A stretch of 64,000 bases of DNA from Nannocystales bacterium (GTDB lineage: Bacteria; Myxococcota_A; Polyangia; Nannocystales; Nannocystaceae). The notes beneath the pieces were generated by a model that saw nothing but the letters and a program-made list of their open reading frames with translations, was not told where the DNA came from and made no database searches. How positions within the stretch are numbered: position 1 is the stretch's first letter; every line of letters begins with the position of its first letter. This document shows, piece after piece, positions 40,282 through 59,294 of this stretch. Location: the NCBI GenBank assembly GCA_050633305.1, contig JBOEGF010000022.1, positions 1-64,000 on the forward strand, given 5' to 3'. Both the position numbers and the translations under genes were made by a program.

Positions 40282-41991
40282 GTGTCGCAGATCCTCATCA
40301 TCGACGACGAAGACAAGTACTTCGAGCTGTGCCAACGGTTCATCGAAGGGCACGACTTCCTGCCGCCCGCTCGCAACTTCCGCGAGGCCGAAGCGACCCT
40401 CGAGGCGCATCGCGGCAAGGTCGACTTGGTGCTGCTCGACGTGCACTTCGACATCCCGGACGAGGACCTGCTCCCGTACGACAAGACGGAGCTGCTCGCT
40501 GGCAAGGACCGCAAGCGAGCGATCGAGCGGCTGCGCCGAGGGCAGGGGCTACACATTCTCGACCAGCTGCGGCGCGTGGTCCCGGACCTGCCGGTCATCG
40601 TGATGACCGCGCGGGACGACCTCCCGATCGAGGCGGACTCGGAGCGCCTCCAAGCCGAGGATTACACGTACCTTCTCGATGACGAGTATCTCGACGCTCG
40701 CTCGCTGCGGCTGCAGATCGAGAACATCCTCGCCCAGCGATCCGGTCCCTCAGGGGACGAGGAGGATGAGCCCTTCTACTGGGGCGAGACTTCCCGGATG
40801 CAGGGGCTGCGTCGGCGATTGTCGATTCTCGCCCGCGGTCAGTTGCCGATCATCCTGCTGGGGTCCACCGGGACAGGCAAGAGCCTCGTCGCGCGGGAGT
40901 TCATTCATGCCCGCTCGCATCGAGAGGGACCGTTCGTCGCGGTCGACCTCTCGACCGTGCCGCACGACCTGATGGGCGCGCATCTGTTTGGCGTGGTCAA
41001 GGGCGCGTACACGGGGGCGACAGCGTCTCGTGAAGGCGTGCTCCAACACGCGCACGGCGGGACCCTGTTTCTCGACGAGATCGGCAACCTGAGCTTGGAG
41101 CTGCAGAAGGCGCTGCTCCAGGTCCTGCAAGAGGGCCGCTATCGCCCGGTCGGCTCGGTGGACGAGCGGGTCGCGGACGTGAAGTTGGTGGTGGCGACCA
41201 ACGAAAACCTGGTCGAAATGGTTCGCCAGGGGAAGTTTCGCGAGGACCTCTACATGCGGCTCAACCCGGCGACCGCGATGCGCCTGCCGAGCCTGACCGA
41301 GCGCAAGGATGACTTCTCGGTCCTGCTGGAGGTGTTCGTCGCTCGAGTTGCGCAGGAGGCTTACAACGCGGACTTGTTGCGGCAGTACGCCGCTCAGCGG
41401 GGGATGGCTGTGCCCGAGACCGAAGCCGTGCCCGTGTCGGTGAGCCGGAAGGTCCCGTCCAAAGCGGACAGTCGTCGGATTCATTTCGTGTTCCACCCCA
41501 GCAGCTACAAGCAGCTGCGGGACTTCGCGTGGCCGGGGAACTTCCGGCAGTTTGAGATGTTCCTCTCCAACCTCATCACGCTGTCGTTGGTCGAGCTTGT
41601 CGACCAAGTGGATGTGGTCGAGCCCAGCAACCCGGCCGAGGCAAGCCGGCCCGACGTCATCCCGATTCTGCCTCGCATCGTGCGTGAGCTGATGCGGCCG
41701 ATGGACATCTCTCGGGTCGAGCCCGAGAACGATGCCGCACCGGTGCGCGTCCTGGACGATGGAGGACATCGGCTGGGCGTGACGCTGCAGGCGGGGGACT
41801 CGCTCAACGCCGTCTCGTGCGCCGTGGAGCGGCAGTATCTGGAGCTGTTGTTCGAGAAATACGAGGGGGACCTCGCGCGTATGGCAGGGGTGCTGCTCTC
41901 GGACCCCACGTCCGGACGCAAGGTCCAACTGCGTATGAACCAACTCGGCATCAAGCTTCGGTCGCTCAAACAGCGGCGGCGCAGCCGATGA
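40282..41991 (+). CDS. Sigma54-dependent enhancer-binding response regulator (NtrC-like) with an atypical receiver
   Basis: ILIIDDE..DLVLLD; Walker A GSTGTGKS; GAYTGA; Walker B LFLDEIG; FREDLYMRLN; WPGNFRQ; C-terminal helical DNA-binding region. Confidence 0.92.
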   Translation: MSQILIIDDEDKYFELCQRFIEGHDFLPPARNFREAEATLEAHRGKVDLVLLDVHFDIPDEDLLPYDKTELLAGKDRKRAIERLRRGQGLHILDQLRRVVPDLPVIVMTARDDLPIEADSERLQAEDYTYLLDDEYLDARSLRLQIENILAQRSGPSGDEEDEPFYWGETSRMQGLRRRLSILARGQLPIILLGSTGTGKSLVAREFIHARSHREGPFVAVDLSTVPHDLMGAHLFGVVKGAYTGATASREGVLQHAHGGTLFLDEIGNLSLELQKALLQVLQEGRYRPVGSVDERVADVKLVVATNENLVEMVRQGKFREDLYMRLNPATAMRLPSLTERKDDFSVLLEVFVARVAQEAYNADLLRQYAAQRGMAVPETEAVPVSVSRKVPSKADSRRIHFVFHPSSYKQLRDFAWPGNFRQFEMFLSNLITLSLVELVDQVDVVEPSNPAEASRPDVIPILPRIVRELMRPMDISRVEPENDAAPVRVLDDGGHRLGVTLQAGDSLNAVSCAVERQYLELLFEKYEGDLARMAGVLLSDPTSGRKVQLRMNQLGIKLRSLKQRRRSR

Positions 41992-46019: not shown

Positions 46020-46220
46020 ATGACGATGCTTCGTTCGACTCTGCTTGCGACGCTTGCGTTTGCTGTCGCGTCCCCGACCCTCGTTGCTTGCGCTGAGAAG
46101 CCCGGCGCGAAGAAGAAGGAAGACGACAAGGACAAGAAGGACGACAAGAAGAAGGAAGGCGATAAGAAAGACGACAAGAAGAAAGACGACAAGAAGAAAG
46201 ACGACAAGAAGCCGTCCTAA
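46020..46220 (+). CDS. Tiny lipoprotein (66 aa) with a Lys/Asp repeat tail
   Basis: MTMLRSTLLATLAFAVASPTLVAC lipobox then KKKEDDKDKKDDKKKEGDKKDDKKKDDKKKDDKKPS. TAGCCT box 7 nt upstream. Confidence 0.7.
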   Translation: MTMLRSTLLATLAFAVASPTLVACAEKPGAKKKEDDKDKKDDKKKEGDKKDDKKKDDKKKDDKKPS

Positions 46221-46238: not shown

Positions 46239-47174
46239 ATGCGGCTTCCCCTTCGGCACGCGCCTCCTGGCGTCGACACTCCGCTGCGACGCTGCGCGCA
46301 CCTTGAAGCGCTCGTCGAGGGTGCGATGGGGCTTCCGCTGGGCCCGGCGGCCCGAGCGTTGTCATCGAGGCGCTCTCGCGGTCGCCACGGGAACGCCCTC
46401 CAGTGGCACCTCGGGCTCGATGCTCACGACGGGGACGCCCAGCTCGACTGGGAAGATCGTATCGAGATCAAGCTGGTGTCGGTTTGGCGCCGGGGCCGGG
46501 GTGCGGACGCTCGGGTCGGCTGTGACAAGCTCAAGGTGTGCGACGTTGGCGTGGACCCGTGGCACAAGCTCGGCAACGTCATGTGGGTGTTCGCGGACCG
46601 TGTGACCCGAACTGTTGTGGGCGCTCTGCAGACCACGCTCAGTGGGGAGCTGAGAACGCGGCTTTCGACCGCCTGGGAGCAGGACCCGCACTTCGAGCAC
46701 CCGATGCTGTTCGTCGAAGCCCGCGAACACGCCGGCAAATCGGCGCCGGCCTACTACCTTGCGGCCCGATGGTTTGAGACGGAGCGGCTGCTTCCCGATC
46801 CGATCCCGGCGATCCAACCGTTCGACTCCACCTGGTGGAGTGCCGCCCGCAACCGTCATGGCCGCGATCCCTGGCTCACTGTGGTCGATGGGTCGTGCGA
46901 CACCGTGCAGTGCCCGCGCTGTGGAGGTCCGATCTCGTTCGACTCCGAGACCCTGCGCAGAGATGGATTCGCCCCGGCCCGCCACGGAATGCCGGCGGAC
47001 GGCCCCTGTTTGGCACGGGCACACGCGGTCGTGGACGTTCACACTGTGGCCCCCTCGGAGACGTTCGATGCCCAGACGGTCTGCGCGGGCATCGAGTCCC
47101 GGCTCCCGGAGGAACAGTTGGACCGGCTCACAAACAGGGTCGCCGAACCGGCCGACCATCTCCACGGCGCGTGA
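46239..47174 (+). CDS. MutH/Sau3AI-like PD-(D/E)xK endonuclease with a C-terminal Zn-binding module
   Basis: RGRHGNALQWHLGL...QLDWEDRIEIKLVSV parallels MutH KGWIG.LLE.WLGA...QDF...VELKTIPV. WHKLGNVMWV; C-terminal CPRC...H...C...H. Confidence 0.75.
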   Translation: MRLPLRHAPPGVDTPLRRCAHLEALVEGAMGLPLGPAARALSSRRSRGRHGNALQWHLGLDAHDGDAQLDWEDRIEIKLVSVWRRGRGADARVGCDKLKVCDVGVDPWHKLGNVMWVFADRVTRTVVGALQTTLSGELRTRLSTAWEQDPHFEHPMLFVEAREHAGKSAPAYYLAARWFETERLLPDPIPAIQPFDSTWWSAARNRHGRDPWLTVVDGSCDTVQCPRCGGPISFDSETLRRDGFAPARHGMPADGPCLARAHAVVDVHTVAPSETFDAQTVCAGIESRLPEEQLDRLTNRVAEPADHLHGA

Positions 47175-47234: not shown

Positions 47235-47275
47235 GAAAAACCCGAAGTCACGGACCAGGTGACCTCGGGCTTTTC
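47235..47275 (-). terminator. Strong intrinsic terminator, polarised for the minus strand (probably also terminates the nuclease gene)
   Basis: Minus strand AAAAG-CCCGAGGTCAC-CTGGTCC-GTGACTTCGGG-TTTTT gives a fully paired 11-bp stem with one G-U. The plus-strand version has an A-C mismatch. Confidence 0.85.
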
Positions 47276-47755
47276 CTGACGTGGCGCCCCGTCGGAGCAG
47301 GCCACAGCATCCAAAGCTGTATGTTCATCGCGGCAACCGCGCTGGATTGCCCACGCGGTCTGGCCCCCCAGCACCGCGCTCAAGTGCGTCCGATAGAACG
47401 GGACGACCGCTCCAGATCAGACTCAAGCTACGCGAAGAAAGCTAGACACCGTGGAAGGCTCGCGTATCGCCTTCCGTCAAATCAAGGCCCGGACTAAGGG
47501 GAAACTCGGGAAAACCCGGGAAATCTAACGAAAACCCAAACGAAGACAAGGACAAGAGAAGCTAGGGCAAGAACAGGTTCAAGTCAGGAAGAAGGGACCA
47601 AGCTAGAGATCGTTCGCAAAACTCGCAAAAAAAGCCATCGAGCAAATCAAGCGGTCAGTCCAGTCGAAGCCAAGGCTAGAACAAGGAGGAAGCTAAGAAG
47701 AAAGGGCGAAGCCAGAGGTGAAAGCCAAGAAGAGTAAGTCAGGCTCAAGCTTCAC
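47236..47755 (-). ncRNA. Candidate ~520-nt sigma54-dependent U/C-rich non-coding RNA with repeated URRYUU motifs
   Basis: No ORF of 60 aa or more in any frame. Bounded by a -24/-12 promoter and a terminator; 5' hairpin; at least 13 AARYYA (plus strand) motifs; strong purine/pyrimidine strand skew. Confidence 0.6.
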
Positions 47756-47765
47756 CTCCCCCATG

Positions 47766-47782
47766 TGCACGGGCTGGGCCAA
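47766..47782 (-). promoter_or_regulatory. Sigma54 (-24/-12) promoter
   Basis: Minus strand TTGGCCCAGCCCGTGCA: GG at 47780-79 and GC at 47768-67 with exact GG-N10-GC spacing. Predicted +1 near 47755. Confidence 0.65.
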
Positions 47783-47787
47783 AATGG

Positions 47788-47800
47788 CAATGTGTTGAAA
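47788..47800 (-). promoter_or_regulatory. IHF-like binding site upstream of the sigma54 promoter
   Basis: TTTCAACACATTG matches WATCAANNNNTTR with one mismatch, has an A/T-rich 5' flank, and lies at about -33 to -45. Confidence 0.55.
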
Positions 47801-48058
47801 TCACTTGCTTTGCATATTTTTCGTGTAGGGGAATTGCTGAGTTCGGACCCGCAGGTATGACAAAAAAGTCCGGGTCGGGCGGGCAACCGCCGTTGTCGCC
47901 ATGACATCGATGTCGTGCGTGACCCCGGATGACGAATCGGCACGGAGATCAGCCCGAGCCGACAGAGCGTCCTGAACGACTGGTTTCGATGCGCGGCGAT
48001 GGATCGGGCTCCACCGGACGGGCCGGGTTCGTGCTAATCCGTCGGCGCGTTCCGGTCG

Positions 48059-48895
48059 ATGAACGACGACGAACCTCCGAATCCGAAGCCTCCTCGTGCT
48101 GTCCTCAAATTTGGCGGGGAGGTTGTTGCAGATACCGCGGCGCTGGTCCGCGTCCTCGATGAAGTACGTGCGCTCATCGCCGACGGATGGAGCTTCGTCC
48201 TCGTCCACGGCGGCGGCCCACAATCCAACGACCACGCCGCCGCGCTCGGCCTCGAGGTTCAGAAGGTCGCAGGGCGACGCGTGACTGACGGTGCGACGCT
48301 CGAAGTGGCCAAACAGATTCTCGCAGGCGCCGTGAACGTAGACGTTGTCGCGACCGCAAGAGCCCGTGGTGTTCGTGCCGTGGGTCTCGCCGGAGTCAGC
48401 CTCCTCACAGCGACCCGACGTGCCGCGGAGGTGGTCGAGGGAGAACCGGTCGACTGGGGGTTCGTCGGTGAAGTGGCGGGGGTCGACACGGCACTTGTTG
48501 AACTGTTGTGGGCTGATGGACGTACCCCCGTGCTCGCTCCGCTCGCTGCGGATTCCAATGGACAGGCCTACAACATCAACGCTGACACGGTCGCATCCGC
48601 GATCGCGGCGGCTGTCCACGCGGACCACCTCTTTCTCATGACTGCAGCAGGCGGCGTGCTCGGGGACATCACAGACCCCGACACTCGAATCCCCACCCTC
48701 ACGCCCACCGAAGCTCGGGACGCGATCGCCACGGGCGTCATCGCGGGCGGGATGATTCCAAAGGTTGCCGATGCGCTCGACCAGCTCGAGCGCGGCATCG
48801 GCGTCGTGCACATCCTGGGCGCCTGTTCGTTGCGCGCGGCCGCGAATGACCCCGGGTGTGTCGGGACGGCGATCGCGTCAAAGGAACTGCGATGA
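48059..48895 (+). CDS. argB: Acetylglutamate kinase
   Basis: VLKFGG; LVHGGGPQ; GRRVTD; DWGFVGEV; YNINADTVA; GVIAGGMIPKV. Confidence 0.93.
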   Translation: MNDDEPPNPKPPRAVLKFGGEVVADTAALVRVLDEVRALIADGWSFVLVHGGGPQSNDHAAALGLEVQKVAGRRVTDGATLEVAKQILAGAVNVDVVATARARGVRAVGLAGVSLLTATRRAAEVVEGEPVDWGFVGEVAGVDTALVELLWADGRTPVLAPLAADSNGQAYNINADTVASAIAAAVHADHLFLMTAAGGVLGDITDPDTRIPTLTPTEARDAIATGVIAGGMIPKVADALDQLERGIGVVHILGACSLRAAANDPGCVGTAIASKELR

Positions 48896-58448: not shown

Positions 58449-58860
58449 GTTCACACCCATAGCCTCGAGCATCGGGGGCCTGTTGATCGGCCTTTCCGCC
58501 GCGATGATGCTCGTTCTCAAGGGGCGCATCGCCGGGATCAGCGGGATCATCGGAGGACTGGCGTCGGCTCCGGCCGGGGAACGCCCCTGGCGCCTTGCGT
58601 TCATGGGGGGGCTTCTCGCCGGCGGCGTCGTGATGGTTGCTCTGGTGCCTGGGCAGTTCGGGTCGCAGCCCACGGCAGGCACAGGAGCACTCGTCGTGGC
58701 GGGTTTGCTGGTCGGCGTCGGTACGCGGATCGGTGGCGGTTGCACCAGCGGTCACGGGGTTTGCGGCCTGTCCCGCTTTTCCCCCCGGTCGATGGTCGCC
58801 ACGGCGCTCTTCATGAGCTTCGCTGCCATCACGGTCTTTTTCACCCGACACATCTTCTAG
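58441..58860 (+). CDS. YeeE/YedE family sulfur-compound transporter subunit
   Basis: [39 protein letters not shown]. Confidence 0.93.
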
Positions 58861-58868
58861 GAGCCGTC

Positions 58869-59294
58869 ATGCCCGTTGTCCTCGCAGCCTTTCTTTCCGG
58901 TCTCGTGTTCGCCGTGGGTCTCGCCGTCGGTGGCATGACCGACCCCATGAAGGTCGTGTCGTTTCTCGATGTGACCGGAGCCTGGGACCCATCGCTCGCC
59001 TTCGTCATGGGCGGGGCAATCCTCTTGTACGCCCCCGTCTTCCACTTCGTCACCAAGCGGACTCGCCCTCTACTGCATCACTCCTTCCATCTTCCCACCC
59101 GAAAAGACATCGACGTCCGGCTTGTCGCGGGTGGCATCTTGTTCGGGATGGGGTGGGGGCTGGGCGGGTTCTGTCCCGGTCCCGCCATCGTCAGTGCCGC
59201 GAGCCTTCGCGGCGATGTGCTCACCTTCGTCGCCTCGATGTTTGTCGGGATGGCGGGGGTGTTCCTCTACGACCGATCACGCACCAACGCCTAA
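58869..59294 (+). CDS. YeeE/YedE family (DUF6691-type) partner subunit
   Basis: FAVGL..GGMTDP.KV..FLDVTGAWDPSLAFVMGGA; LFGMGWGLGGFCPGPA. Confidence 0.92.
   Translation: MPVVLAAFLSGLVFAVGLAVGGMTDPMKVVSFLDVTGAWDPSLAFVMGGAILLYAPVFHFVTKRTRPLLHHSFHLPTRKDIDVRLVAGGILFGMGWGLGGFCPGPAIVSAASLRGDVLTFVASMFVGMAGVFLYDRSRTNA

Follow-up and report, generated by a model that had tools for sequence, protein, structure and literature searches.

The CsrB/CsrC and RsmX/Y/Z RNAs carry many copies of a short motif in variable number, occur as several paralogs and end at intrinsic terminators, and they are transcribed from sigma70/GacA-type promoters, not from sigma54 promoters. Pxr of Myxococcus is a short small RNA (sRNA) of three stem-loops. 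Pxr apart, hardly any regulatory RNAs are known from myxobacteria, and a literature search, largely at abstract level, found none reported for the family Nannocystaceae. For the sigma54-dependent GlmY/GlmZ genes, excerpts of PMC3045617 describe three GlrR sites (TGTCN10GACA), the integration host factor (IHF) consensus WATCARNNNNTTR and a requirement for IHF. The locus described here lies in a window of 64,000 nucleotides (nt), the whole stretch of DNA analysed, from contig JBOEGF010000022.1 of a Nannocystales bacterium (assembly GCA_050633305.1). Positions 47236..47755 of its minus strand can be regarded with high confidence, on comparative grounds, as a real gene for a noncoding RNA (ncRNA) of ~520 nt. 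Its best reading, with a probability a little short of even, is as a member of a new family of sigma54-dependent, sponge-type RNAs.

A minus-strand ncRNA of this length was the core of the original prediction, and comparison between relatives supports it: the gene, its strand, its promoter architecture, its terminator, the enrichment of its motif and its non-coding status all find support there. The two ends of the predicted RNA are placed by promoter geometry and by the terminator, and the predicted orthologs span 238–554 nt. Across 47450–47750 the GC content is 0.47–0.53 and the plus-strand AT skew +0.5 to +0.7, compared with a GC content of ~0.65–0.70 in the flanks, which bears out the abruptly A- and purine-rich plus strand described at the outset. 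Each of the 13 plus-strand hexamers listed there was also found in its place, and an extra AAGTCA lies at 47245, within the terminator. Searching Rfam with the window gave no match at the gathering score and only two chance-level matches at E-values up to 10, so that the RNA is new to that database. No published report of this RNA was found in the literature search, which was largely abstract-level.

Coding on either strand was ruled out. The RNA strand has 7–8 stops in each frame, GC content is flat across the three codon positions in all frames of the RNA region (0.43–0.54), and indels between congeners do not preserve a reading frame; GC content at third codon positions (GC3) is 0.71 in the neighbouring argB, 0.79 in the neighbouring MutH-like gene and 0.85 in the tail of a lipoprotein-like open reading frame (ORF) at 46020–46220. 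Stops are few on the purine-rich strand because that strand is poor in T. The claim that this is the only large gap between coding sequences in the window holds roughly: after a crude GC3 test two further gaps remained, 691 and 543 nt long, both with plausible ORFs. The first of these, at 489–1179, is not coding-like in GC3 and contains a low-complexity ORF of 170 residues on the minus strand; the second, at 58752–59294, is likewise not coding-like in GC3 and contains a membrane-protein-like ORF of 184 residues.

Transcription of the RNA is very likely driven by sigma54 and an enhancer-binding protein (EBP), judging from the upstream DNA. A sigma54-type -24/-12 element, TGGCCCAGCCCGTGCA, occupies 47766..47781 of the minus strand (47781–47766 in the sense of the RNA), with GG and GC at the appropriate distance, and this spacing sets the transcription start (+1) near 47755. 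The promoter originally proposed is thereby corroborated: the element fits the TGGCAC-N5-TTGCW spacing, and the genome contains an rpoN gene (217 bits). Within the genus, TTGGCCC-N5-xTGCA is invariant in 7/7 congeners. The logo of 45 non-redundant promoters reads aat.aTTtcaa....tTg.c...tTGGCcC....ccTGCAca..ggg, its -24/-12 portion being tTGGCcC-N4-ccTGCA, in which TGGC and TGCA are each at least 80% conserved. A promoter and terminator scan of the locus found no sigma70-like promoter on either strand.

Two predicted activator sites (upstream activating sequences, UAS) precede this element on the minus strand. The distal EBP site, UAS1 (47903..47914), is the perfect palindrome GACATCGATGTC, ~135 nt upstream of the -24 element, and the proximal site, UAS2 (GGACTTTTTTGTCAT, 47857..47871), lies between the two, 31 nt from UAS1 and 75 nt from the -24 element. 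Between UAS2 and the promoter, a putative IHF-like site, AGTGATTTCAACACATTG (47788..47806), is conserved in the 45-promoter logo with the family consensus aTTtcaa-N4-tTg and agrees with the IHF consensus quoted in the excerpts of PMC3045617 at 8 of its 9 specified positions; three HU/IHF-family genes are present in the genome. The spacing from UAS2 to the -24 element is 72–76 nt in 32 of the 45 promoters and 63–66 nt in 11. These two spacing classes differ by about one helical turn, consistent with a requirement for a particular helical face.

The EBP (sigma54-interaction) domain family has 54 matches in the genome, 43 of them at E < 1e-30. The candidate cognate activator is a protein with a receiver and a sigma54-interaction domain encoded 5.8 kb away on the plus strand (40282..41991; Pfam Sigma54_activat E 9e-54). 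It is put forward because an ortholog with 64–94% identity holds the same place across genera, in five of the six genomes examined (five genera), and its link to the RNA promoter is putative. Single palindromes of the GACAT-N2-ATGTC type occur elsewhere in genome G000, at C20 ~65338 (-), C8 ~215479 (+) and C8 ~114077 (+) (loci L153–L155), each 43–76 nt before a sigma54-like -24/-12 element and ahead of a lipoprotein-like gene with acidic low-complexity linkers. These three genes may belong to the regulon of the same activator. At two loci of genus g15 (L142 and L145), UAS1-like sequences (..CGACGTGGATGTCATGG.. and ..CGACGCCGGTGTCATGC..) lie just past the RNA terminator, towards the MutH-like gene.

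At its 3′ end, the RNA has a predicted intrinsic terminator (47236..47275, minus strand) with a stem of 11–12 base pairs (bp), a CUGGUCC loop that includes the family-wide UGGUC, and a U-run; its hairpin, CCCGAGGUCAC/GUGACUUCGGG followed by UUUUU, spans 47269–47236. The terminator fits the minus strand only: its G-U pair, to which the original prediction had pointed, turns into an A-C mismatch when the plus strand is read. The scan found a terminator-like site on the minus strand alone. The strand is fixed likewise across relatives, because G-U pairs are frequent in the stem.

A covariation check, suggested at the outset, found that both the terminator stem and the outer stem of an upstream hairpin covary. 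A MAFFT alignment of the terminators mixed two stem registers; pairs were counted on an alignment fitted to the terminator model R2 (45 positions), which has 39 rows, two of them weak reverse-strand matches, and which leans towards structure. In these 39 rows, 87.2% of the cells at stem positions are paired, and compensatory change is seen in 7 of the 12 pairs. A double change is present in 78 cells, compared with 34.6 ± 6.5 in shuffled alignments (0/500 reach 78) and with 10–21 when partner columns are slid.

The covarying upstream hairpin, H1 (47353..47379, minus strand), has the form GCGCGG..CUGG-GGGG-CCAG..CCGCGU and contains the family box CGGUGCUG followed by a G-run. Its apex is invariant in 7/7 congeners, its outer stem covaries within the genus, and the box GGUCGGUGCUG and the run CUGGGGGGG are found again in other genera. 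Between H1 and the terminator lie a variable hairpin, H2 (47332–47351), whose stem differs among congeners with pairing retained, and a single-stranded stretch, UGAACAUACAGCUUUGGAUGC (47307–47327), conserved in 5/7 congeners; a further hairpin, GGAAGGC-loop-GCCUUCC, lies upstream of H1 at 47451..47476 (all minus strand). The last of these is kept in genomes G000, G001 and G002, and a different 7-bp hairpin takes its place in G006. Of the stems first described in the 3′ part, those at 47353–47379 and ~47451–47476 thus stand; the one at 47303–47321 is present in this sequence and missing from congeners. The hairpin said to open the RNA can likewise be drawn here and is not conserved, with three predicted pairs and no covariation among congeners. 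The terminator loop (CUGGUCC, 47258–47252) is complementary, read by eye, to GGGCCAG of H1 (47366–47360) over seven pairs including one G-U. A kissing contact or alternative fold between the terminator loop and the G-loop hairpin is possible from the sequence; it lies beyond covariation testing because both sides are invariant in the genus.

The body of the RNA is a pyrimidine-rich repeat tract (47480..47740, minus strand) with UGGCUU, UAGCUU and UGACUU motifs. The repeats had been described as URRYUU, and their number exceeds chance by dinucleotide shuffling: 11 occur in a 286-nt core where 1.9 are expected (0/300 shuffles reach 11), and a further count of this RNA gave 12 where 1.8 are expected. 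Across 33 RNAs of the family (238–554 nt), URRYUU occurs 216 times where 40.4 are expected from dinucleotide shuffles, and 26 of the 33 are individually beyond 2 of 200 shuffles. The pair UGGCUU|UAGCUU occurs 138 times where 13.7 are expected, is present in 33/33 and is irregularly spaced (median 17 nt, quartiles 9–27). An unbiased k-mer count in 12 bodies ranked TGGCTT (31 vs 3.6 expected), CTTGGC (25 vs 3.2) and TAGCTT (24 vs 2.3) highest, and the logo of 139 sites is C-Y-U-R-G-C-U-U-(C/G). The enrichment first reported is thus upheld, and the motif itself is better written C-Y-U-R-G-C-U-U. Body sequence cannot be aligned between congeners, nevertheless the motif is kept, and the bodies of G001 and G006 contain tandem duplications. 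The body is predicted to be less structured than the 3′ end, with an unpaired probability of 0.49 compared with 0.335 for the last 100 nt, and is the higher of the two in 33/33 RNAs.

The stretch is single-copy in its own genome, and among sequencing runs parts of it occur in two metagenome runs, both of DNA. BLASTN detects the element in 6/6 congeners, where its two ends are conserved and its middle has diverged; the same search of 33 genomes from other genera did not find it. Congeners can be aligned over the promoter region at the 5′ end and over the final ~250 nt, not over the middle; the blocks invariant in the genus are GATTTCAA..TTG..TTGGCCC-N5-xTGCA, CTTGGCTT, CTGGGGGGCCA and the terminator with its loop. 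A genus-level model of the 3′ domain (R1) recovered only terminators outside the genus, look-alikes in two other genera, and three loci (L147, L148 and L150) were rejected as false matches of this model. A scan of contigs for the terminator core gave mostly chance matches; among the matches listed, only L115 and L127 had the element.

Beyond the genus, a shared layout emerges. Upstream are GACA-N4-TGTC, GGAC-N6-GTCAT 29–31 nt later, AATGATTTCAA-N4-TTG and the -24/-12 element; downstream is a pyrimidine-rich stretch of ~300 nt full of CUUGGCUU, UUAGCUU and CUGACUU; and the end consists of the box GGUCGGUGCUG, optionally CUGGGGGGG, and the terminator with its UGGUC loop. The UAS pair pattern occurs in 40/72 genomes of the order, all in one family and in 14/17 genera, with no match for the reversed control. 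Among 400 genomes sampled from the class, 38/70 other genomes of the host family have it, as does 1/329 of other families, and this lone outside match looks like chance; the reversed pattern gave no match in the 400 genomes. A -24/-12 element lies 63–84 nt downstream of the pair in 27 of 30 fetched loci, followed by 6–19 motifs within 300 nt, and in the remaining three, bases are masked or the -24 element is a variant. The terminator model R2 matches 59/72 genomes of the order (39/42 of those of high quality, 16/17 genera), with a single match in 57 of the 59. Thirteen loci found through the terminator alone all have GACA-N4-TGTC upstream (13/13), and 11/13 have a -24/-12 element under the strict pattern. 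Taken together, the sequence comparisons point to a previously undescribed RNA family of 240–550 nt confined to one myxobacterial family.

A predicted paralog on contig C18 of the same genome has the same distal palindrome and then TGGCACACCGTCTGCA at the same distance, and heads a ~320-nt pyrimidine-rich stretch that contains 16 motifs; the copy is flanked by a NUDIX and a PilZ gene. Only two of the 1535 sigma54-like matches in the genome are followed by at least 14 motifs, namely this locus (14) and C18 (16). At least two UAS pairs are present in 19 genomes from five genera.

The neighbouring genes are conserved along with the RNA. On the terminator side, a convergent gene (46239..47174, plus strand) encodes a host-family-specific MutH-like protein of 311 residues with a CxxC element; on the promoter side lies the divergent argB (48059..48895, plus strand), of the acetylglutamate kinase family (Pfam AA_kinase E 2e-41). 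The 311-residue protein has no sequence match in Pfam, NCBIfam or PDB. Its predicted structure (pLDDT 78.6) has MutH as best fold match (E 3.4e-4, TM score 0.51), followed by Sau3AI, which lends support to its earlier label as MutH-like. Its gene was found in 23/23 other host-family genomes sampled and in 0/16 genomes from 13 other families; of the 23, 21 have one copy and two have the gene divided between two contigs. Searches of other genomes by tblastn placed this protein beside the RNA at 22 distinct loci, and an ArgB homolog on the side of the promoter at 19 distinct loci. The arrangement between the MutH-like gene and argB that relatives had been expected to show was thus found in them, and gene order is kept across genera: EBP, tetratricopeptide repeat (TPR) protein, MutH-like protein, RNA, argB and CNNM transporter. 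Close by, at 46020–46220 (plus strand), is the small lipoprotein-like ORF mentioned above, with a signal peptide ending ..LVAC and a Lys/Asp-rich repeat tail; the GC3 of this tail marks it as coding, and the ORF explains the second A-rich patch of the window.

It is proposed that a response-regulator-type EBP would bind the two palindromic sites ~75–135 nt upstream, and that a DNA bend at the IHF-like site would bring it to sigma54 polymerase at the -24/-12 element. If the RNA is expressed in this way, and depends on sigma54 and the EBP in vivo, transcription would stop at the intrinsic terminator, whose loop always carries UGGUC. The body is a poorly structured, pyrimidine-rich tract that turns over fast, partly through tandem duplication, and always retains 5–19 copies of C-Y-U-R-G-C-U-U. 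On induction, the RNA and its paralog would titrate a factor that recognises the motif, probably an RNA-binding protein, and this titration would free the other targets of the factor.

A sponge or decoy function of this kind falls slightly below an even chance. As in sponges as a class, a short motif is enriched over chance and its copy number varies between relatives, and a sponge of the CsrB, RsmZ or CrcZ kind fits better than a seed-based sRNA because of the fast turnover of the body, its tandem duplications, the variable copy number, the paralog and the structurally selected ends. Among the parts of the original decoy proposal, the ncRNA, its sigma54-type promoter and its enriched motif hold up; the decoy function and a partner of the cold-shock or RNA-recognition-motif (RRM) type are its conjectural parts, and RRM proteins, present throughout the class, do not single out the host family. 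Candidate RNA-binding genes in the genome comprise four small RRM genes, one cold-shock domain (CSD) gene and one strong CsrA match, and co-distribution makes the MutH-like neighbour a further candidate partner. At L189 (G000 C10:454758-457967), a gene for an NtrC-type EBP of 475 residues precedes two of these small RRM genes, which point away from each other; one product is Lys/Arg-rich at its N-terminus, and the tail of the other is rich in Gly and Arg. A bolder proposal is that the RNA is the founding member of a new bacterial sponge class, with its own motif, C-Y-U-R-G-C-U-U, and a regulator not yet linked to sponges. This is rather unlikely on present evidence, and it is similarly doubtful that the titrated regulator would be, for example, a small RRM/glycine-rich protein or the MutH-like neighbour. 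If the new-class proposal were true, a single myxobacterial family would have evolved a sigma54-controlled post-transcriptional switch along with its EBP and neighbouring genes.

Several observations weigh against the main reading. All the genomes compared are relatives of one another, and the counts given above overstate their independence. An Hfq gene was not found in the genome (92% complete), and RRM proteins occur in 39/40 relatives, other families included; being present throughout the class, they give no specific link to the RNA family. Within the body, the motifs show no greater exposure than their surroundings (unpaired probability 0.504 vs 0.486, higher in 18/33 RNAs). The genome has a CsrA gene, yet GGA occurs 46 times in the 33 RNAs where 88.8 are expected (0.52x); ANGGA is at its expected level in them (12 vs 11.2). 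Furthermore, read in reverse complement the motif gives common Ala/Val-Lys codon pairs, and its origin or role may be tied to Lys-rich genes.

This last point bears on a different proposal, that the RNA is a base-pairing regulator with many seeds, its motifs pairing with purine-rich mRNA, such as runs of Ala-Lys codons (GCC-AAG) or ribosome-binding regions, and the pairing controlling translation or decay. Many sigma54-dependent sRNAs act by pairing, the body here is weakly structured, and in a genome-wide scan of motif density the densest windows elsewhere are the antisense strands of Lys/Ala-rich protein genes. The number of perfect complements in the genome is nevertheless that of shuffled sequence: 1654 11-mers compared with 1717 ± 305 in 40 dinucleotide shuffles, 448 12-mers compared with 439 ± 98, and 113 13-mers compared with 111 ± 32. 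Motif number and position also vary freely between congeners, unlike a fixed seed, and no tRNA or tmRNA among 54 carries the complement of the motif, which likewise disposes of a tRNA or tmRNA sponge. Base pairing thus appears unlikely, with a modest share of the probability. Long Lys/Ala-rich, histone-H1-like coding repeats lie in G000 at C15 ~253.5 kb, C14 ~197.5 kb, C7 ~339.9 kb and C8 ~359.4 kb, and their antisense mimics the RNA motif (CUUCUUGGC..). Type III toxin–antitoxin RNAs of the ToxI type are made of regular ~36-nt tandem repeats and are co-transcribed upstream of an endoribonuclease toxin gene. A ToxI-like RNA was rejected, given the irregular motif spacing (median 17 nt) and a neighbour that converges on the RNA gene and is MutH-like in fold.

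That neighbour could instead be the RNA's partner: with the nearby EBP also involved, the RNA might, for instance, bind the family-specific MutH-like/CxxC protein as a decoy, guide it or inhibit it. The two share the same family-restricted distribution (23/23 vs 0/16 outside), the protein has a MutH-like predicted fold, and in 21/23 genomes its gene and the terminator match share a contig and are no more than 700 nt apart, a proximity that holds even in G007 and G014, where relative orientation differs. This adjacency may be inherited gene order, because the whole block from the EBP gene to argB and beyond is syntenic across the family, and argB is equally adjacent to the RNA. The C18 paralog lies between its NUDIX and PilZ genes with no MutH-like copy nearby, and MutH relatives act on DNA; such a partnership is accordingly judged improbable. 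Finally, the transcript might be functionless, the promoter acting in cis, for example by interfering, divergently or convergently, with argB or with its MutH-like counterpart on the other side; alternatively, the tract could be a decayed antisense remnant of a Lys/Glu-rich gene. The activator sites do fall within the 300-nt spacer shared with argB, and the purine-rich strand is almost free of stops in some congeners. Selection nevertheless acts on the RNA itself, because the terminator stem covaries around an invariant loop, the conserved box is found repeatedly and the motif is enriched in 33/33 RNAs despite sequence turnover. With a paralog in a different gene context and no GC3 periodicity, a functionless transcript is very improbable, and the sponge-type RNA is retained as the best reading.

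The RNA family is defined end to end by its predicted activator sites, promoter, body and terminator, and it is present in most host-family genomes, often in two copies. So defined, and with a motif unlike those of known sponges, it offers a tangible way into post-transcriptional control in large genomes that are rich in sigma54 systems, and a clean test case for discovering a new RNA-binding regulator. Two search models have also been gained, namely the UAS pair pattern and a terminator model that matches about once per genome.

Among the systems with which the RNA may be compared, Pxr shares its status as a myxobacterial regulatory sRNA, and sigma54 is mentioned in Pxr papers (2 and 7 occurrences); the window matched no Rfam family of any kind. 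The CsrB and RsmZ RNAs differ in presenting GGA in hairpin loops, whereas GGA is depleted here, and they too have no Rfam match in the window. A CsrB-like RNA read from the plus strand was rejected, since GGA shows no enrichment on that strand in 7 congeners. GlmY and GlmZ of Enterobacteriaceae come closer, with two homologous sRNA genes per genome, sigma54 promoters, palindromic sites for a response-regulator EBP and IHF sites (excerpts of PMC3045617), and one of the two acts as a protein decoy (PMC4152352 and PMC7073468, in excerpt). They have three activator sites of the form TGTCN10GACA, unlike the two found here, GACA-N4-TGTC and GGAC-N6-GTCAT, and they fold into three defined stem-loops; the RNAs here are longer, pyrimidine-rich and repeat-bearing, without similarity to them in sequence or in Rfam. 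CrcZ and CrcY of Pseudomonas and Azotobacter belong to another phylum and have no Rfam match here. The motif of CrcZ is A-rich and binds Hfq/Crc; the A-rich AANAANAA has no occurrence in the 33 RNAs, whose body is 13% A, and Hfq was not found. These RNAs are several hundred nucleotides long, are transcribed from a sigma54 promoter under a two-component EBP, carry multiple short single-stranded motifs, occur as paralogs and antagonise an RNA-binding regulator (see PMC5113210 and PMC4063720). The same type of promoter, a sigma54 element with upstream EBP sites, can be recognised in the present RNA family from its sequence, with activator sites that are its own rather than those of CbrB.

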